A stretch of 41,273 nucleotides of DNA, from the sequence record MT711527.1; one strand, written 5' to 3'. The position numbers and the translations under genes are program-made. This document shows, piece by piece, positions 3,870 to 36,240 of the stretch (positions within the stretch are counted from its first letter, which is position 1; each line of letters starts with the position of its first letter). The notes beneath the pieces were generated by a model, which saw nothing but the letters and a program-made list of their open reading frames with translations, was not told the DNA's origin and did not search any database. Source of the stretch: Escherichia phage vB_EcoS_fTaEco01.

Positions 3870-4330
3870 TGATGGGCTTTTTCAAAGTAACTGACGTACC
3901 GTCTCGTCGCGTAGTCCAGTACGCCCGCGTGTCTGGCTCTGGCGAGAACGTGGTGTTTATTGAAGACGAAAGTGTACTCGGAACACCAGTGGACGATATG
4001 CCGTTTGCGGACAAGACCGGTATTGCGCTGCCAGCGGCAGGTATGCTTTATGAGATTCAGTACCTGGCGGATGCTGGTGATGTGTATTTCTCCGTACAAC
4101 CGCAGGACGCTGAACTGGCAGACGGCAGCGCAAATATCGCTGTCGAAGTTAAGGCGGGCAAAGCACCATATGCGCTGACCTGGTACAAAGACGGGAAGGA
4201 AGTGGTAAACGCCCCGGAAGAGGCTCTGTCTCTGACGGTTAACGCAGTTGGTGAATACTTCGTTAAAGTCACTGATGCAGACGGTATAGAGGCCGTAAGT
4301 AAAGCAGCGAAGGTTACTAAGCCAGAATAA
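3869..4330 (+). CDS. hypothetical protein (possible Ig-like head/decoration protein)
   Basis: 153-aa ORF overlapping upstream stop (TAATG); followed by a strong terminator. Confidence 0.45.
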   Translation: MMGFFKVTDVPSRRVVQYARVSGSGENVVFIEDESVLGTPVDDMPFADKTGIALPAAGMLYEIQYLADAGDVYFSVQPQDAELADGSANIAVEVKAGKAPYALTWYKDGKEVVNAPEEALSLTVNAVGEYFVKVTDADGIEAVSKAAKVTKPE

Positions 4331-4335
4331 ACTGA

Positions 4336-4355
4336 AGCCCCGAAAGGGGCTTTTT
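4336..4355 (+). terminator. rho-independent terminator
   Basis: AGCCCC-GAAA-GGGGCT hairpin followed by TTTTT. Confidence 0.65.
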
Positions 4356-4419
4356 AGTGCCTGTGATTATTCCAGTTATTCCACTCAATTGTAAATGTTG
4401 GAATAAACTATTCGAATAG

Positions 4420-4448
4420 TTGACTTTTCACCAAAAATGTGCTAAGCT
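4420..4448 (+). promoter_or_regulatory. sigma70-like promoter (TTGACT-17 nt-TAAGCT)
   Basis: Hexamers at 4420-4425 and 4443-4448 with 17-nt spacer; the ACTATTCGAATAGT palindrome abuts the -35; near-identical architecture at 34591-34619. Confidence 0.5.
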
Positions 4449-4454
4449 CCACCT

Positions 4455-4650
4455 GAGCTTGTGAAGTATGAACAAGCGACCGCGGCGCGGCAGGTAACGG
4501 AGCCGGACGTTAAGTCCGAGTGTAGTTGCGCTGACGCGTTCGGAAGGGCCATACTCTATTGCTTGTGTAAAAAGTAACTGGTTTACTGAGATTACGCCGT
4601 TTCTATGTTTAAATGATAAGGACTAGCGCCCCGCTTTAAGGCGGGGCTTT
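4455..4650 (+). ncRNA. candidate structured leader / small RNA (copy A of a duplicated element)
   Basis: Region between promoter and hairpin terminator (stem 4628-4634/4641-4647 then TTT); contains the 38-nt core CCTGAGCTTGTGAAGTATGAACAAGCGACCGCGGCGCG (4452-4489) identical to 34623-34660; no conserved ORF. Confidence 0.3.
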
Positions 4651-4671
4651 ACTTATCGAGAAAGGGGAAAC

Positions 4672-9029: not shown

Positions 9030-10196
9030 ATGGCTACAACTCCTTTTAAGGGCGCGAATACTGCGCAATTCTATGTGGCAGAAACTACCCCTGGCGTAAC
9101 ACCGACTAACCCGGTCTGGTCGCCATTGCGTAACACAGGTGGCGTTCCTGCCATTACCCGCGACACGCTGACCTCCAACGAACTGGACGGCAGCCGTGAA
9201 ACTACATCCATCCGCACCGGTAACAAACAGGTTAGCGGTGAATACGCGATCGAGCTTAGCTCGAAAAGCCAGGATGACTGGCTGGCTGGTGCTTTAGGCT
9301 CTACGTGGCAATCCGGTAGTTCTCTGACCGGGCTATCAATTACCGTCGCGCCTGCAGACAAGACCTTTACCCGTGCCGAAGGTAGCTTTATTTCTGACGG
9401 CGTTGAAGTGGGCGACCTGATTGCGTTTACCGACTTAACCGGTGACAACGCAAAACCGTTTATCGTAACTGCAGTAGAGGCGCTGGTAGTGACCGGGGCG
9501 GGTATCCAGCATACCCTGACCACAGAGACAGTAACTACCGCCGCTAAGACAGGGGATAAACTGGAAACGGGAAGCCAGTGCAAGACGTTCTCTATTCTCA
9601 CCTGGTACAAAGGCCAGTGCGGCGGGACTGACGCGTACACACTAACCAAAGGCGTGGAAGTTTCTGGTTTTACCATCGAACAGGCTGTTAACGCTATGGT
9701 AACTGGCAGCTTCCCGTTCATCGGTCGCAGTCAGGAGATTCTCACCACGCAGCCGTCTGGTTCTGATTTCTCCTCTGTTACGTTTGGTGACGAGCCATTC
9801 TCCTCGGTCGATGTTTCTGTGTTCGACGGTTCTACGCCGTTGCGTTGCGACAGCCTGACCATCACCAACGACAACAGCGCGTCCGCACAGTTCGAACTCG
9901 GCAACACTAACGTAGCGTTTGTGGAGCGTAGCCGAGCAGCTAACACCTTCTCCATCTCCGGTAAGCTGTACGACATGGCGATGATTCAGAAGTTTATCAA
10001 CGAGCAGCAGGTGGAGATTAACTCTATTCTGGCTGGGGTAAACGGGGCTATGTCTTTCAGTTTGAAACGTGCAGAACTTACGGCGGTTACACCTGAGATT
10101 GGAGGACCTGAGTCAATCACTCAGTCTATTGAAGGCCAGGCTACTGGCAACCAGTACCAGTCGTCTATTGTTATTCAGCGTATCACATACGCATAA
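9030..10196 (+). CDS. major tail protein (positional)
   Basis: About 389 aa, Thr/Ser/Gly-rich; AGAGG RBS before ATG 9030; followed by a strong terminator. Confidence 0.5.
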   Translation: MATTPFKGANTAQFYVAETTPGVTPTNPVWSPLRNTGGVPAITRDTLTSNELDGSRETTSIRTGNKQVSGEYAIELSSKSQDDWLAGALGSTWQSGSSLTGLSITVAPADKTFTRAEGSFISDGVEVGDLIAFTDLTGDNAKPFIVTAVEALVVTGAGIQHTLTTETVTTAAKTGDKLETGSQCKTFSILTWYKGQCGGTDAYTLTKGVEVSGFTIEQAVNAMVTGSFPFIGRSQEILTTQPSGSDFSSVTFGDEPFSSVDVSVFDGSTPLRCDSLTITNDNSASAQFELGNTNVAFVERSRAANTFSISGKLYDMAMIQKFINEQQVEINSILAGVNGAMSFSLKRAELTAVTPEIGGPESITQSIEGQATGNQYQSSIVIQRITYA

Positions 10197-10200
10197 AACT

Positions 10201-10226
10201 AAGGCCCCGTTTGGGGCCTTTTTCTT
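10201..10226. terminator. bidirectional rho-independent terminator between convergent genes
   Basis: AAGGCCCC-GTTT-GGGGCCTT hairpin flanked by A-run and T-run; nearly identical to the terminator at 22727-22750. Confidence 0.65.
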
Positions 10227-12635: not shown

Positions 12636-12650
12636 TGTTGGTGTAAGTGA

Positions 12651-12679
12651 ATAGTACCCTATTATATTGGGGTGTGCAA
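12651..12679 (-). promoter_or_regulatory. promoter (TTGCAC-17 nt-TACTAT) for the minus-strand accessory cassette
   Basis: Reverse complement gives TTGCAC-ACCCCAATATAATAGGG-TACTAT; nearly identical to plus-strand promoters at 34888-34916 and 36181-36209. Confidence 0.5.
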
Positions 12680-13204: not shown

Positions 13205-13569
13205 ACGCGCTGTACAGGTTCGCCACCTATGAGTTTGTGGATAAGCATAAAATCAGAGAGTTTGATTCTATAGCCGACGGACACGAACAGGCGCTTATCG
13301 CGATGGGTGTAATCGATAAGAAAAAACGTGCAGCGCGACGGGGTGGGCCAGAATGCCCGCCCCTTTTTATATCCACCTTCGAGACGTACTGCGACATTAA
13401 GTTTACGCGACACGTGCGCGAGGACGCTGTAGTATTGTTCGCAAGAGAATCCGTTACGTGGCAAGACCTGAAAGCCTATCTCGATGTTACGCAAAAACAG
13501 CTTAGCCTGTTCGAGATAGACATTATCATGGGCTTAGAAGCAATCTTTGAAGGTAGAAATCATGGCTGA
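13180..13569 (+). CDS. tail assembly chaperone extension (GT-like), probably expressed by -1 frameshift from 12788-13204
   Basis: Frame -1 relative to the upstream ORF is open from 13180; no ATG or RBS of its own (ORF track uses GTG 13237); slippery-like G_GAA_AAG at 13195-13201; ends overlapping tape measure start. Confidence 0.4.
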   Translation, partial: AQSITGKVDALYRFATYEFVDKHKIREFDSIADGHEQALIAMGVIDKKKRAARRGGPECPPLFISTFETYCDIKFTRHVREDAVVLFARESVTWQDLKAYLDVTQKQLSLFEIDIIMGLEAIFEGRNHG

Positions 13570-19767: not shown

Positions 19768-22722
19768 ATGTCAAGCGGATGTGGTGACGTTTTAAGCCTG
19801 GCGGATTTACAGACCGCCAAGAAGCACCAGATTTTTGAAGCCGAGGTTATCACGGGTAAATCCGGCGGAGTAGCCGGGGGCGCAGATATTGATTACGCGA
19901 CAAACCAGGTTACAGGGCAGACCCAGAAGACACTACCTGCCGTGTTGCGTGACGCTGGTTTTAAACTGGCAGATTTTGATTTCACGTCAGGCGGTACACT
20001 ATCCGCTAACGACCGAAACACCGCAGTTTTGTGGCCGTCGTCCTCTGGTGGCGATGGGGATTGGTACCATTGGTTGGGCGCTCTGCCAAAAACTATCCCG
20101 GCGTCATCTTCTCCGCAGTCCACCGGTGGCGTGGCAGATGGGGCGTGGCAGCCTGTCGGGTCGGTCATACTGCGGCAGCAAATATCTGATGTAAACGGTG
20201 CAATTCTGTACCCAGATTTACATGTGGCGCGATGGAAGGACGAATACGACCCGCGCGCATGGGGCGCCGTGGGCGACGGCGTAACTGATGATACTCAATC
20301 TATTTTTAATGTATTAGCAGCTTCCCACAACAATTGGATTATAGACGGCAGGGGCTTGACTTATAAAGTTTCCCAATTACCTGACATTAGTAAATTTAAG
20401 AATGCTGCATTCGTTTACGAGCGCGTAGCTGGGCAACCGCTTACTTATGTAGCTGATGGCTTCTTTAACAGCTCACTAACTAAGGTGACGGATACCCCGT
20501 TCTACAACGCATGGACGCAGGATAAAACTTTCGTCTACGACAATGTTATTTACGCTCCCTTTATGGCCGGCGAACGACATGGCGTTCAAAACTTACATGT
20601 AGCTTGGGTTCGCTCTGGTGACGACGGGCAGACTTGGTCAATGCCTGAGTGGTTGACCCCAATCCATGCTGACTATAATGCTAGGGTTTCCGCGGACAGA
20701 GTTAACTACCACTGCATGAGCATGGGTACGTGCGGCAACCGATTATATGCAGTTATAGAAACCCGCTACTTATCTAATATGCGGATGAAGAAGGCAGAAC
20801 TTTGGTCACGCCCAATGCCGTATTTTAGACACCCAACCGGCGGAATAACTATTAGTTCTGGTTCCACTACTGCTACCATTGTTATAGAAAATCACGGCCT
20901 AAAAGCAGGAGATGCGGTTAACTTCTCTAATACATCGGCAACTGGCGTATCGGGTAATATGACGGTTGCGTCTATAATTAACCGAAATACGTTCACTGTT
21001 ACGCTCTCAAGCCCGGCGAGTTCCACCATAAACAATGCGGGTGTTACCTGGAACTTCGCAACGCGATTCTGGGACAGCCCGTGGGAAATTACCGAATTGC
21101 CTGGGGTAGCATACTCCACTAACGCTGATTTGTGTGTCACGGAGACACATAGTTTTGCGGTTATAGACGATGTTAACTACACTATCGCTGTCGGCTATCA
21201 CAACGGCGATGTGTCCCCTAGGCGTCTCGGTGTCTTGTATTTTAGTAACGTGTATGACAATCCTGGCGTATTCGTTCGTCGCACTGTCGCTCAGGCATAC
21301 GCTGATAACGCTTCTGAGCCGTGCGTGAAAAGTTATGGTGGTGTGTTATACCTTACCACACGCGGCACATTACCTACTTCCCCTGGCTCTACACTGGCGA
21401 TGAGCACCGATTCTGGGCAAAACTGGAGCTACTTGCGATTTCCGAACAATGTACATCACTCCAATCTTCCGTTCGCTAAAGTAGGTGACTATCTCTACAT
21501 CTTTGGTACAGAACGTGCCTTTGGTGAGTGGGAAGGTGGTGAGCAGGACAGCCGCTATGAAGGTTCGTATCCGAGGACCTTTATGTGCAAAGTTAATGTG
21601 TCGTCCTGGCCTTCATCTTTAGATGATGTTCAGTGGTTTAATATTACCGACCAAATATACCAGGGTCATATCGTTAACTCTGCTGTCGGCGTCGGCTCGG
21701 TCTGTGTTAAAGATGGCTGGTTGTACTATATCTTTGGTGGGGAAGACTTCTTCTCTCCCTGGAGCATAGGGGATAACAGTGCGAAGTTATGGTACAAACA
21801 TGATGGGCATCCGGCTGACTTATATAGCTACCGGATAAAGATTGAAGACCACCCGTATGTATCCCGTGATTTCAAATACGGAGCAACTCCTAACCGTACA
21901 CTACCTGTCGCCATGGGGGTAGATGGTGTACGTCATGTAGGGGCACCTTTAACATTTGATAATGATGTAAGCGTGTACTCACTGCATGTAACGGGGCTGG
22001 AATACGATGGTACACAACAGTCCGCCGTGCGTGCACAGTTTGATGGTGATTACGGGCTGATTTCAAAAACAGTCCCCACTAAAAACCCATCGGGTCAAAG
22101 ACTGATAGTTAGCGGTGGTGATGGTGCATCCAGTTCCGATGGTGCGTTGCTGCAACTGTACGGGGCAAACCATGCAACGCCTAACAGGGCTATTATGTAT
22201 GCGTCAGGAGGCTTCTACTCATACAACAATTTTCTTCCTTACTTAGACTCGCAAGTGTCTTTAGGTTCGGCAGGTAATAGGTGGACTACGGTGTACGCGA
22301 CCACCGGTACGATAAATACGTCTGATGGTACACTTAAGACGAATAAAGAGGAAATTGAGGGACAACTCCTTACCGCATGGGAAGATATACATGTAATATC
22401 TTTTAAGTGGCTTGAAAGCCTAGCAATCAAGGGTGACACTGCAAGGATACACTTCGGTGTGATAGCCCAAGATGTGCGAGACATCTTGGTCAACCATGGG
22501 CTTATGGAGAAAGATTCTACCGATTGTAAATATGCTTTCTTGTGCTACGACCCAATTGAAGCTGCGTATGATATTGATGAAGATGGCCAGACTGTACAAG
22601 TATCCCCTCCCGGCGGCAGATGGGGGGTTAGGGCGGACCAGATGTTCTTCATAGAGATTGCCTATCAGCGTAAGAAGATGCGCGAGTTCGAGAAGAGGCT
22701 GGCAGCACTAGAAGATAAATAA
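19768..22722 (+). CDS. tailspike / tail fibre with sialidase-like Asp-box (BNR) repeats and C-terminal intramolecular chaperone (peptidase S74-like) domain
   Basis: 984 aa; Asp-boxes SGDDGQTW and STDSGQNW; C-terminal region with TSDGTLK...IHFGVIAQDV... resembles self-cleaving chaperone domains of endosialidases and T5 L-shaped fibre; AAAGAGG RBS. Confidence 0.6.
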   Translation: MSSGCGDVLSLADLQTAKKHQIFEAEVITGKSGGVAGGADIDYATNQVTGQTQKTLPAVLRDAGFKLADFDFTSGGTLSANDRNTAVLWPSSSGGDGDWYHWLGALPKTIPASSSPQSTGGVADGAWQPVGSVILRQQISDVNGAILYPDLHVARWKDEYDPRAWGAVGDGVTDDTQSIFNVLAASHNNWIIDGRGLTYKVSQLPDISKFKNAAFVYERVAGQPLTYVADGFFNSSLTKVTDTPFYNAWTQDKTFVYDNVIYAPFMAGERHGVQNLHVAWVRSGDDGQTWSMPEWLTPIHADYNARVSADRVNYHCMSMGTCGNRLYAVIETRYLSNMRMKKAELWSRPMPYFRHPTGGITISSGSTTATIVIENHGLKAGDAVNFSNTSATGVSGNMTVASIINRNTFTVTLSSPASSTINNAGVTWNFATRFWDSPWEITELPGVAYSTNADLCVTETHSFAVIDDVNYTIAVGYHNGDVSPRRLGVLYFSNVYDNPGVFVRRTVAQAYADNASEPCVKSYGGVLYLTTRGTLPTSPGSTLAMSTDSGQNWSYLRFPNNVHHSNLPFAKVGDYLYIFGTERAFGEWEGGEQDSRYEGSYPRTFMCKVNVSSWPSSLDDVQWFNITDQIYQGHIVNSAVGVGSVCVKDGWLYYIFGGEDFFSPWSIGDNSAKLWYKHDGHPADLYSYRIKIEDHPYVSRDFKYGATPNRTLPVAMGVDGVRHVGAPLTFDNDVSVYSLHVTGLEYDGTQQSAVRAQFDGDYGLISKTVPTKNPSGQRLIVSGGDGASSSDGALLQLYGANHATPNRAIMYASGGFYSYNNFLPYLDSQVSLGSAGNRWTTVYATTGTINTSDGTLKTNKEEIEGQLLTAWEDIHVISFKWLESLAIKGDTARIHFGVIAQDVRDILVNHGLMEKDSTDCKYAFLCYDPIEAAYDIDEDGQTVQVSPPGGRWGVRADQMFFIEIAYQRKKMREFEKRLAALEDK

Positions 22723-22726
22723 AACT

Positions 22727-22750
22727 AAGGCCCCAAACGGGGCCTTTTCT
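22727..22750. terminator. bidirectional rho-independent terminator
   Basis: AAGGCCCC-AAAC-GGGGCCTT hairpin + T-run; separates convergent structural and replication blocks. Confidence 0.65.
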
Positions 22751-25344: not shown

Positions 25345-25629
25345 TTAACTATAATAGCTCGCTATTAGGTCGTCAACCTGTTTAAACGAACCAACGATAA
25401 AAACATTTGCACCGCGTTTACGCATCCGCTCGTGCTCACGTATCTGGTGCGGGTCTGGCTTCGTGTTTTCGTCTTTCTTAACCTCGACGAACCATATGAC
25501 GCCGCCAGGGAGAATTACCAGCAGGTCGGGAGCGCCGGAGCGCCCCTCGTAGGAGAGCTTACGAACGAGGCCGCCGATGGCCTCGAATCGCTCTTTTGCG
25601 TATTTCTGTATTTTGCCTTCCGGTGTCAT
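25345..25629 (-). CDS. VRR-NUC domain nuclease
   Basis: PD-(D/E)xK-type core GAPDLLVIL...VIWFVEVKK; ATG 25629 preferred over TTG 25644. Confidence 0.6.
   Translation of the reverse strand: MTPEGKIQKYAKERFEAIGGLVRKLSYEGRSGAPDLLVILPGGVIWFVEVKKDENTKPDPHQIREHERMRKRGANVFIVGSFKQVDDLIASYYS
25348..25376 (-). promoter_or_regulatory. internal promoter (TTGACG-17 nt-TATAGT)
   Basis: Reverse complement TTGACG-ACCTAATAGCGAGCTAT-TATAGT; lies in the 3' end of the VRR-NUC gene. Confidence 0.45.
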
Positions 25630-28901: not shown

Positions 28902-28930
28902 ACTATAATAGCTAACTATTCAGGTGTCAA
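28902..28930 (-). promoter_or_regulatory. internal promoter (TTGACA-17 nt-TATAGT)
   Basis: Reverse complement TTGACA-CCTGAATAGTTAGCTAT-TATAGT just upstream of the SSB-like gene. Confidence 0.5.
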
Positions 28931-31307: not shown

Positions 31308-31336
31308 ACTATAATAGCGAACTATTCACTTGTCAA
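31308..31336 (-). promoter_or_regulatory. promoter (TTGACA-17 nt-TATAGT) for leftward operon
   Basis: Reverse complement TTGACA-AGTGAATAGTTCGCTAT-TATAGT. Confidence 0.5.
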
Positions 31337-34070: not shown

Positions 34071-34304
34071 CTAGCGTTGGGGTTTCTTTTGTCTACGCAC
34101 CGCATTAACCCACTCTCCTTCGCTACGGTAAAAACTGCAATCAAGGATATCCTCTATAGAAAATTTAACTATTTTAGTGGGTCCACAAAAGTTATAAGGG
34201 AAAAGTTCTACATAACACCCATCGTCGGTTATATTTGACGCAATCTTGAAATAATATTTAATGCTGCCGTCTTCGCGGAAGCTACAACCCATACGCCCAA
34301 TCAT
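34071..34304 (-). CDS. hypothetical protein
   Basis: 77-aa ORF ATGA-coupled to upstream HTH gene. Confidence 0.4.
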   Translation of the reverse strand: MIGRMGCSFREDGSIKYYFKIASNITDDGCYVELFPYNFCGPTKIVKFSIEDILDCSFYRSEGEWVNAVRRQKKPQR

Positions 34305-34483
34305 TTCACGTTCTCCTTAATCCATGCTTCAACTTTATTACGGTCGAATGTTCCCGGTAAACGGCGACCCATAACCTTAATACAACAATCCGGGAATTTA
34401 CCACTGCGTAACCAGTTATTAATTGTCTGACGTGTCACCCCAATACGCTCGGCTACTTCATTCTGGGTCATGTAATGTTGCAT
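34301..34483 (-). CDS. helix-turn-helix DNA-binding protein (AlpA/excisionase-like fold), first gene of leftward early operon
   Basis: MTQNEVAERIGVTRQTINNWL HTH core; CAGGAG RBS before ATG 34483. Confidence 0.55.
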   Translation of the reverse strand: MQHYMTQNEVAERIGVTRQTINNWLRSGKFPDCCIKVMGRRLPGTFDRNKVEAWIKENVK

Positions 34484-34514
34484 TTTTAAATCTCCTGTTT
34501 GTTTGGTGAAGCCA

Positions 34515-34543
34515 AGTATAGGATAGCGGGAATGTAAAAGCAA
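34515..34543 (-). promoter_or_regulatory. leftward early promoter (TTGCTT-17 nt-TATACT)
   Basis: Reverse-complement hexamers with 17-nt spacer; back-to-back with the rightward promoter at 34591-34619. Confidence 0.45.
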
Positions 34544-34590
34544 CCAAAACACCACACAAAGTTACTAAGATACAAAAGATGCTACTAGTA

Positions 34591-34619
34591 TTGACTTTTA
34601 CTAAGAAATATGGTAAGCT
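34591..34619 (+). promoter_or_regulatory. rightward sigma70-like promoter (TTGACT-17 nt-TAAGCT)
   Basis: Same hexamers and spacing as the promoter at 4420-4448. Confidence 0.5.
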
Positions 34620-34625
34620 CAGCCT

Positions 34626-34825
34626 GAGCTTGTGAAGTATGAACAAGCGACCGCGGCGCGCGGCAGGCGAAACGAGCACGTGTAACGTGTGGAGTGAGGC
34701 TCGCTGGCGCGTTTGGGAGGCCCAAAGTCTATTGTAATTCCCGCCTAATTATCTAAGTTACTGATTTGCCGTAGGTTAGAACCGCCAGCTCACTCACTCA
34801 CTCTTGGTGCCTTCGGCACCACGTT
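34626..34825 (+). ncRNA. candidate structured leader / small RNA (copy B of duplicated element)
   Basis: 38-nt core at 34623-34660 identical to 4452-4489; short hairpin GGTGCC-TTC-GGCACC at 34806-34820; no conserved ORF. Confidence 0.3.
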
Positions 34826-34887
34826 CGTTTCGTTTCGCTCGCTACCCCCTTAAACGAAAGAATCACAACGGCAACGTAACTAATCTC

Positions 34888-34916
34888 TTGCACACCCCAA
34901 CATAATAGGATACTAT
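34888..34916 (+). promoter_or_regulatory. promoter (TTGCAC-17 nt-TACTAT) for rightward small-gene cluster
   Basis: TTGCAC-ACCCCAACATAATAGGA-TACTAT. Confidence 0.5.
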
Positions 34917-34950
34917 TCACTTATCGAAACGAGACAGAGGAGTGAGGGTT

Positions 34951-35136
34951 ATGTTTAAACGTGGTCAGTTGGTTAAATGCGCCGACGATAAACACGGCAT
35001 AATTGAATTAAAATCTGCTTTATTTCCAGGAAAGTACGTAGTTACCGTGCAAAATGTGAGAGGAGTAAATTCACAAATATACGTAGCGGAGGAGAACTTA
35101 AAACTCATCGGCAACAATTTTAAATTTAAAGGGTGA
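34951..35136 (+). CDS. hypothetical protein
   Basis: GAGGAG RBS 8 nt upstream of ATG. Confidence 0.5.
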   Translation: MFKRGQLVKCADDKHGIIELKSALFPGKYVVTVQNVRGVNSQIYVAEENLKLIGNNFKFKG

Positions 35137-35341: not shown

Positions 35342-35520
35342 TGCGAATCCGTATAACTGACCGCAGGCTTGTCCGTATAACTGACCGCAGGCTTATAGAT
35401 TTCGGTATCTCGGTAGGTGATGTTTTTCCGGCGTTCAGCATCAACCATTATGGTTTTATGATTGAGTACAAAGGGTCGTTATTGTTCGTGTATCGGGATG
35501 AATGTGAGGTTCTGGTATGA
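35341..35520 (+). CDS. hypothetical protein containing an in-frame tandem repeat
   Basis: 59-aa ORF (TAATG overlap) encoding RITDRRLVRITDRRLI from a 23-nt tandem duplication. Confidence 0.4.
   Translation: MRIRITDRRLVRITDRRLIDFGISVGDVFPAFSINHYGFMIEYKGSLLFVYRDECEVLV
35348..35394 (+). repeat. tandem direct repeat, two 23-nt copies with 24-nt period
   Basis: TCCGTATAACTGACCGCAGGCTT at 35348-35370 and 35372-35394. Confidence 0.8.
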
Positions 35521-36180: not shown

Positions 36181-36209
36181 TTGCACACTAAGATAGAATA
36201 GGCTACTAT
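36181..36209 (+). promoter_or_regulatory. promoter (TTGCAC-17 nt-TACTAT)
   Basis: TTGCAC-ACTAAGATAGAATAGGC-TACTAT. Confidence 0.45.
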
Positions 36210-36240
36210 TCATTTACACAAACGAGAGGAGAGACAGAAT

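Follow-up and report, generated by a model that had tools for sequence, protein, structure and literature searches.

RESULTS

A promoter-leader cassette present twice

This work concerns a structured RNA element encoded at two places in Escherichia phage vB_EcoS_fTaEco01 (MT711527.1). The whole stretch of DNA that was analyzed, here called the window, is 41,273 nucleotides (nt) long. One copy of the element (B) belongs to a divergent control region that adjoins the helicase-primase gene, within a gap (34484-34941; 458 nt) that, by reading of the open reading frame (ORF) list, is the longest between plausible genes. The other copy (A) precedes the genes for the Rz-like spanin, the scaffold, and the major capsid protein. 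The two loci hold the following features:

34301-34483, leftward: small helix-turn-helix (HTH; MerR/excisionase-like) gene, left border of the gap
34515-34543, minus strand (reverse complement read): leftward promoter TTGCTT-17-TATACT, serving the HTH gene
34591-34619, plus strand: promoter P_B, TTGACT, 17-nt spacer, extended -10 TGG-TAAGCT, predicted start 34626/34627
34624-34735, plus strand: leader RNA copy B
34942-35136, plus strand: first small rightward gene, right border of the gap
4420-4448, plus strand: promoter P_A, TTGACT-17-TGC-TAAGCT, with the palindrome ACTATTCGAATAGT (4407-4420) ahead of it
4453-4562, plus strand: leader RNA copy A

There are exactly two such cassettes in the window, each comprising a promoter TTGACT-17-(TGn)TAAGCT and then an RNA of ~110 nt. 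A sequence-only reading of this DNA had described, in what it took for the longest non-coding stretch of the window, back-to-back promoters, a 38-nt core common to both rightward transcripts, low-complexity repeats, a short hairpin, and a second promoter before the first gene, and every feature that it listed is present at its coordinates. The core is identical in the two copies (4452-4489 = 34623-34660), and a 37-nt core search of the window gives 2 matches versus 0.00 expected. What that reading missed is that the similarity between A and B extends beyond the core, from the promoter to about +165, as covarying structure.

Single-sequence folding yields the same layout, P1 followed by P2/P3, in both copies. 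In copy B its parts are:

34628-34648, plus strand: P1, 5'-terminal hairpin GCUUGU-GAAGUAUGA-ACAAGC, 2-3 nt after the predicted start
34651-34716, plus strand: P2, long irregular hairpin with base CCG/UGG, a bulged C, two invariant G-U pairs, and a purine-rich internal loop
~34676-34691, plus strand: P3, variable tip hairpin of P2, in which all 5 pairs change on both sides
34717-34735, plus strand: conserved single-stranded tail GAGGCCCAAAGUCUAUUGU, reading GGAAGGGCC...UCUAUUG in most copies of the alignments

P1 consists of a 6-bp stem and a 9-nt loop that is not conserved, being reduced to 3 nt in relatives of the type represented by Salmonella phage SE2 (SE2-type). Conservation peaks at the P1-P2 junction, the base of P2 (bulged C and tandem G-U), and the tail, while the tip is free to vary. 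The functional unit is the first ~110 nt past the promoter and not the whole ~200 nt between the two rightward promoters that had been proposed; the rest of that interval is taken up by one copy of a repeated DNA motif, a microsatellite of variable length, a hairpin, and a promoter that belongs to another class.

Covariation supports a plus-sense RNA fold

Relatives of the element were gathered from IMG/VR, GenBank phages, metagenomes, and GTDB genomes, and covariance models R1 and R2 were used for the searches. R1 matches two places in the window (copy A, 120.8 bits; copy B, 73.1 bits, E of 9e-16, across all 111 model positions), two in phage fFiEco02, and one in Salmonella phage SETP13. Among 35 distinct sequences, 97.4% of cells pair versus 33 to 45% with shifted partners, and 8 pairs are changed on both sides. 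Over alignments with and without the SE2-type sequences the corresponding values are 97.1 to 97.4% versus 30 to 45% in the shifted controls, all of these alignments being fits to the model with only about six variant types among their sequences. Once the SE2-type is included, 97% of cells pair versus 30 to 41% in shifted controls, and 18 of the 28 pairs change on both sides; RNAalifold gives back the same structure, and none of 500 shuffles reaches any of the five observed measures. Five of the six P1 pairs covary, the SE2-type having the substitute hairpin (U)ACGCU-UUC-AGCG(U)A, and one P2 pair (37-121 of alignment A9) is seen as CG, UA, and AU. A comparison of A with B for compensatory changes, which had been suggested with the sequence-only reading, finds the tip hairpin as GGAC/GUCC in A and CACG/CGUG in B; the decisive covariation, however, comes from ~30 distinct relatives, not from this pair.

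A tandem of two G-U pairs never varies, and several single substitutions turn U-A into U-G. As both would be A-C mismatches on the opposite strand, the folded molecule, judged by these substitutions, is the plus-sense RNA; every model match is likewise on the plus strand. The same pattern bears on the idea that the conserved entity is DNA, whether as a binding site for a protein, as a replication origin, or as a repeat of recent spread that has no function of its own. The position of copy B in a divergent control region beside the helicase-primase gene, with palindromes and repeated motifs nearby, would suit such an element. Nevertheless, compensatory changes that keep Watson-Crick or G-U pairing, together with the invariant G-U pairs, point to selection on a single-stranded plus-sense molecule, and the second copy lies in the late region, distant from the replication genes. 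We regard a DNA-level explanation as highly improbable.

The ORFs that overlie copies A (38 amino acids, GTG start) and B (32 amino acids, ATG start) are unrelated and in different frames, and variants of the element differ by 1-nt insertions or deletions; the element is thus not protein-coding on sequence grounds. This agrees with the earlier description of the region as apparently non-coding, and the conserved small protein in related genomes that had been named as its possible refutation is not encoded there. Several GenBank genomes annotate a "hypothetical protein" coding sequence over the copy A element (4453-4562), and these calls are probably spurious.

A scan for transfer RNAs and transfer-messenger RNAs found none, and three motif assignments were rejected. 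A pseudoknot between the P1 loop (AGUAUG) and the tail (CAUACU) is perfect in A and unpaired in B, and the tail position varies among C, G, U, and A without change in the loop. GGA motifs are inconsistent across variants as CsrA sites, and the internal-loop sequences are unlike the kink-turn and sarcin-ricin consensus.

Whole-window comparison with Rfam 15 at gathering thresholds matched no family, and relaxing the search to E values of ≤10 over 34400-35000 returned only noise (12 to 16 bits, E of 0.6 to 9), with no riboswitch. No description of the RNA was found in the literature. Judged by covariation and conservation, the element is a real, strongly conserved structured RNA, not catalogued before, that forms the 5' end of two phage transcripts as placed by their predicted starts. 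The expectation that the transcript would begin with a structured leader is borne out by the covarying fold. That this leader is a regulatory RNA or an antitermination element was the other half of the proposal; here the structured, non-coding nature stands, and the role is argued from position, architecture, and analogy.

Promoters of the two leaders

The combination TTGACT-N14-TGNTAAGCT occurs in the window only at 4420 and 34591 (0.01 expected). In more than 60 distinct upstream sequences of relatives, the -35, TG, and -10 elements are invariant and the spacers variable, and the same holds for the hexamers and TG of P_B in more than 20 distinct B loci. The leftward promoter is a weak consensus match (8/12), so it was not listed by the promoter scan; its hexamers are kept, and its spacer exists in two versions, between two groups of relatives. 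Constant hexamers with varying spacers are the signature of real promoters, and we read P_A, P_B, and the leftward promoter as such, with starts predicted from sequence.

SE2-type promoters repeat the -10 hexamer 3 nt downstream (TACGCT-ACC-TACGCT in Salmonella phage SE2; L114, 370-410), where the window has only TAAGCT...TGAGCT. By analogy with lambda PR' and putL, this repeat could give a promoter-proximal sigma-70-dependent pause. In Escherichia phage BEU35 (L064, 360-410), the P_A -35 and everything upstream of it are swapped for unrelated sequence, and the -10 and RNA element are intact.

Distribution among Guernseyvirinae

The 481 bases around copy B are 100% identical to Escherichia phage vB_EcoS_fTaEco03 (Kagunavirus, Guernseyvirinae). 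Copy A shares 95.5% identity with fTaEco03 and 99.1% with K1ind1, and the nearest relative of the capsid gene is fKuEco01. As copy A and the capsid gene match phages other than the one that equals the copy B region, the window is, by these identities, a mosaic Kagunavirus.

The Kagunavirus-type element is found in 180 GenBank phage records at 222 places; the surplus consists of B copies, giving ~42 records with two. Copy A stands ahead of the spanin-scaffold-capsid genes in ~450 Guernseyvirinae records, whereas copy B is a duplicate in a subset of Kagunaviruses. The SE2-type element, in 269 records, is a diverged copy upstream of the spanin gene of SE2-type Jerseyviruses. It was missed by BLAST and scores 40 to 46 bits with R1 and 66 to 78 bits with R2; its P1 hairpin is entirely different and so is the middle section of P2. 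The spanin gene ahead of which the element stands occurs in 506 records. One core variant ("type 3") fills the A site of one genome and the B site of others, so the core is, on this evidence, an autonomous exchangeable module independent of what follows it.

Other Guernseyvirinae (phiEap-2/SP-031 type, Cornellvirus, Hafnia phage TS33, and Pantoea phage AH01) have a promoter and a two-hairpin leader at the same spot. Some of these leaders share motifs such as GGAAGGGCC (present in the phiEap-2 type) and AGUCUAUU, and the model scores for these groups are borderline (E of 0.07 to 3.5). We treat the leaders of these four groups as probable analogues by model score and do not claim homology. The spanin leaders of phiEap-2, Cornellvirus, TS33, and AH01 (L116, L117, and L119-L123) are 250 to 300 nt long and have extra shared hairpins, UACGGCAAC...GUUGCCGUA and, just 5' of the ribosome-binding site, GUGGGG...CCCCAC + UGUUACG. 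These extra hairpins are not in the Kagunavirus leader.

The element is absent from 5,426 complete Escherichia coli genomes. Pattern scans of IMG/VR returned contigs of the same phage group (mostly ~41 to 45 kb) and one chance match; those of metagenomes gave 47 loci, 6 of them chance matches without a model hit. In GTDB, the single match was a mis-binned 6-kb phage contig in a "Bacillota MAG" (metagenome-assembled genome).

The region 4400-4671 is 96% identical between the coliphage and SETP13 over 270 nt, and the flanking genes are 60 to 87% identical; in this comparison, the copy A leader is better conserved than its neighboring genes. Such a leader might stabilize or process the messenger RNA (mRNA). 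Here P1 would shield the transcript from 5'-end-dependent decay (RppH/RNase E), as in the ompA 5' untranslated region, and P2 may be an RNase III site like those of T7 early RNA, the net effect being higher downstream expression. A 5'-terminal hairpin is a classic guard against 5'-end-dependent decay, and P1 stands 0 to 3 nt past the predicted start in Kagunavirus, SE2-type, and Cornellvirus leaders despite differing sequence. P2 has a lower helix of ~17 bp and a tip of ~5 bp with an internal loop between them, a layout that resembles T7 RNase III sites, in which a helix of about two turns contains an internal loop. Like ompA and the T7 early sites, the element places a 5'-terminal hairpin and then a longer one before genes with high expression. 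The genes behind copy A include those for the proteins needed in greatest abundance (scaffold and capsid), and a second stable hairpin, with or without a U tract, lies just 5' of the ribosome-binding site in every group. For stabilization, however, a terminal hairpin would suffice. The ompA and T7 sites tolerate sequence change if structure is kept, whereas here the sequence itself is conserved in the junction, tandem G-U, internal loop, and tail; this conservation, the bulged C, and 96% identity over 270 nt amid drifting neighbor genes are left unexplained. We consider a stabilizing or processing leader somewhat unlikely.

Hairpins downstream of the leaders

A stable hairpin lies 65 to 70 nt past each copy, and the hairpins of A and B are unrelated. 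Terminator-like hairpins also occur inside the plus-strand operons:

34805-34821, plus strand: hairpin UGGUGCC-UUC-GGCACCA with the interrupted U tract CGUUCGUUUC, flagged as terminator-like; weak terminator or stabilizer
4628-4647, plus strand: hairpin GCCCCGC-UUUAAG-GCGGGGC with UUUACUU, terminator-like, ~25 nt before the spanin start codon
2767, 4336, 4628, 10201, and 13340, plus strand: terminator-like hairpins inside late-region operons

The first of these was reported earlier as 34806-34820. Other B-type leaders have an unrelated hairpin, GGGGUGGGC-UAAC-GCCCACCC, in its place. The hairpin behind copy A is supported by a compensatory variant, GCCCUGC/GCAGGGC, and no promoter lies between it and the spanin start codon.

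Near-identical hairpins, ATAAAACTAAGGCCCC-NNNN-GGGGCCTTTT, are found at the ends of plus-strand gene blocks (4326-4355, 10193-10222, and 22719-22748), those at 10201 and 22727 scoring as terminators on both strands or on the minus strand. A smaller hairpin (2767-2782) lies between the portal and head-morphogenesis genes. A very strong one, GGGGTGGGC...GCCCGCCCC plus TTTTT (13340-13363, plus strand), follows the tail-assembly-chaperone gene, inside the stretch that a relative's annotation assigns to a frameshifted form of the chaperone. It could serve as an internal terminator or attenuator, or it could be linked to the frameshift.

Two further explanations depend on these hairpins. First, the cassette could be a two-copy gene for a small RNA of ~195 to 200 nt, with most transcription from P_A and P_B ending at the next hairpin and the abundant short product exerting its effect in trans, perhaps as a decoy or through binding or titration of a host protein. 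Both copies consist of a strong promoter, ~200 nt, and a stable hairpin. At B, the hairpin is followed by a separate promoter (34888-34916) before the genes begin, so these need not depend on P_B. The arrangement recalls the lambda PR'-6S-tR' leader and StxS, where a strong promoter is followed by a non-coding leader of ~200 nt, a hairpin, and the late genes, and where the short transcript is possibly functional. Short RNAs terminated just past a late promoter are reported to be able to function, StxS being an example (PMC7547250). The likeness stops short of lambda Q itself, which acts via a promoter DNA site and a sigma-dependent pause rather than by means of a conserved RNA fold, and Q homologues are missing from the annotations of three related genomes and from the matches of the 10 proteins scanned here. 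Against a small RNA, the A and B transcripts have little in common in their 3' halves, their U tails (UUUACUU in A and CGUUCGUUUC in B) are short, unlike the long U tail of the Hfq type, and the SE2-type hairpin has no U tract. Moreover, the lack of a promoter between the A hairpin and the spanin start codon requires read-through. We consider a trans-acting small RNA unlikely.

Second, a riboswitch or a ligand- or temperature-sensing leader would control the downstream hairpin. Covarying stems around invariant unpaired or non-canonical positions, with a terminator-like hairpin downstream, are what such a leader would show. The same core, however, stands before unrelated hairpins that are 65 to 70 nt off with another hairpin between, and it is swapped between A and B contexts. 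By inspection there is no conserved alternative pairing between core and hairpin; the lack of a U tract in the SE2-type and the absence of any Rfam riboswitch match at E of ≤10 also count against a sensor, which we judge improbable.

A candidate cis-acting antitermination leader

With unrelated hairpins downstream and no promoter between the A hairpin and the first gene, an action independent of terminator sequence fits better than a matched riboswitch platform. We therefore tentatively favor, by analogy, a cis-acting leader, put- or nut-like, that would make RNA polymerase resist termination. Host sigma-70 RNA polymerase would start at the extended -10 promoter and at once transcribe P1 and then P2/P3, the promoter and first ~110 transcribed bases forming a portable cassette. 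The nascent RNA would act in cis on its own polymerase, either alone, as in phage HK022 put, or by docking a host or phage factor, as in nut. The elongation complex would then resist pausing and termination, and polymerase would pass the hairpin or terminator behind each copy and later terminators in the long plus-strand operons, which contain the early genes behind copy B and those for spanin, scaffold, capsid, and tail behind copy A.

Several observations favor antitermination. The promoters belong to a class with only two members in the genome, and the element begins 2 to 3 nt past their predicted starts; this matches putL, whose first position is +3 of the PL transcript (PMC9378689). Each of two long operons is headed by one copy, as with putL/putR or nutL/nutR, and several terminator-like hairpins lie inside the plus-strand late operons. 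A PHROGs scan of 10 proteins (7 of the rightward early cluster, the HTH protein plus its neighbor, and a DicA-like regulator) revealed no known antiterminator: for 8 of them the only matches are to families without assigned function, and the other 2 hit helix-turn-helix families. Nor is an antiterminator, Q included, annotated in the three related genome records.

Few classes of cis-acting RNA antiterminators are known (put and EAR). Suppression of downstream terminators by put needs no protein factor and is lost in mutants of the rpoC zinc-binding domain. The resemblance to HK022 put lies in two irregular stem-loops in a cis-acting RNA present in two copies, each behind the sigma-70 promoter of a long operon, with one copy (putL) at the very start of its transcript and conserved residues clustered where the stems meet. 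HK022 also has no known dedicated antiterminator protein, in parallel with the scan above. In put, polymerase contacts residues of both stems near the junction (PMC9378689); here the junction and P2 base are invariant and the tip is variable. There are also differences. The element comprises ~95 nt of structure plus a tail versus ~72 nt in put, its P1 is a short, simple hairpin that gives no hint of the triplex of put stem I, and the carriers are virulent Guernseyvirinae, not lambdoid phages. Its put-like activity is predicted by analogy.

Lambda nutL/nutR and N offer a second model, also with two copies in the leaders of two operons, and here a hairpin and a conserved single strand could recruit factors. 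Set against the familiar boxA and boxB consensus, however, the tail (UCUAUUG) contains no boxA (CGCUCUUA / GCUCUUUA; GCUCUU(U)A), and P1, with a 6-bp stem and 9-nt loop (3 nt in the SE2-type), is not a 5-bp stem with a GNRA-like pentaloop. No N-like protein was recognized among the 10 scanned, N-like proteins being small, fast-diverging, and thus easily missed. RNA-dependent processive antitermination of long operons, as proposed here, is also reported for EAR (eps-associated) RNA of Bacillus and the conAn leader RNA of conjugative elements, systems tied to mobile or accessory elements (PMC8191782). The present element has no Rfam match to EAR, and hosts and architecture differ.

Several points weigh against antitermination. 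SETP13 lacks copy B, so its early operon needs no element. No similarity to put was found by reading putL and putR from NC_002166 or with R1 and R2, which gave only noise in the HK022 put regions (L055; E of ~8 to 10), and put homology was rejected. In the SE2-type, phiEap-2-type, and Cornellvirus phages, the hairpin before the spanin gene has no U tract; it is then possibly no terminator, which weakens the read-through argument, and the U tracts of the window itself are poor. A 5'-terminal hairpin is equally expected of an mRNA stabilizer, and the fold energy is unremarkable (z of -2.1 and -0.7). As the function is drawn from analogy, put homology is lacking, hairpins lack U tracts, and SETP13 lacks copy B, we hold antitermination to be possible, at a level short of probable. 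A more specific proposal, a new nascent-RNA antiterminator class unrelated to put that would load onto E. coli or Salmonella RNA polymerase directly from the transcript start and act operon-wide in a virulent siphophage, is somewhat unlikely.

Other promoter classes and candidate operators

The remaining features of the control region are DNA motifs, several of them repeated elsewhere in the window:

34888-34916, plus strand: second promoter TTGCAC-17-TACTAT with embedded palindrome AATAGGATACTATT (34904-34917), of a different class from P_A/P_B
12650-12663, 25353-25366, 28907-28920, 31313-31326, 34904-34917, and 36197-36210: AATAG-N4-CTATT palindromes
34755-34762 and 34559-34566, plus strand: AAGTTACT motif, on both sides of P_B
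34787-34800, plus strand: (CTCA)3 microsatellite, C-rich and G-poor

AATAG-N4-CTATT palindromes occur 6 times in the window versus 0.04 expected. Those checked (25353, 28907, 31313, and 34904) are embedded in the spacer or -10 of sigma-70-like promoters of the TTGACA-17-TATAGT type. The second promoter before the first gene, which the sequence-only reading had recorded without this connection, is thus a member of a six-promoter family. The motif was earlier reported as a PHIRE "phage promoter" motif (PMC9825357), and the palindrome is probably the operator of a phage regulator. The perfect palindrome ACTATTCGAATAGT, which abuts the P_A -35 and is near-invariant across the A loci examined, has half-sites related to AATAG/CTATT but arranged the other way around; an activator or repressor bound there may set the timing of the late promoter. 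AAGTTACT has 4 matches in the window versus 1.24 expected, a marginal excess, and is a possible protein-binding DNA site. It is repeated in the SETP13 early control region (L003, 35922-36382), which has no RNA element, a different leader, and ~4 AAGT(T/A)ACT motifs. Taken together, the AATAG-type palindromes, ACTATTCGAATAGT, and AAGTTACT are probably operator sites for phage helix-turn-helix regulators. If so, timing would be set at initiation, with the RNA acting after initiation.

The low-complexity repeats noted after the core correspond to the CTCA microsatellite, which could be a Rho loading site. It has 3 units in the window versus 4 in a close relative (L066, 2298-2317), implying that its length is unconstrained. 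At the start of a small early ORF, an exact 23-nt tandem direct repeat (TCCGTATAACTGACCGCAGGCTT twice, with 1 base between) occupies 35348-35394.

DISCUSSION

Kagunavirus and Jerseyvirus phages are among the most often isolated therapeutic and biocontrol phages of E. coli and Salmonella. We found no published account of their transcription control beyond predicted promoters and terminators, and the one Kagunavirus transcriptome paper gives gene-level timing only (PMC12645636). The best-conserved non-coding feature of these genomes is a structured RNA that opens the capsid-operon transcript at its 5' end, duplicated before the early genes in some, and it offers a concrete, easily testable handle on how these phages control transcription.

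If the element proves to be a protein-independent antiterminator, it would be the second phage example beside put, with a different fold, and the first from a strictly lytic group outside the lambdoid phages, one in wide therapeutic use. It would then help to establish which properties allow an RNA to reprogram RNA polymerase and, as a promoter plus 110 nt, would be a compact, portable part for synthetic biology. Should it instead be a stabilizer or a small RNA, a family entry would still be merited, as ~450 genomes list it as empty intergenic sequence or as spurious "hypothetical proteins."

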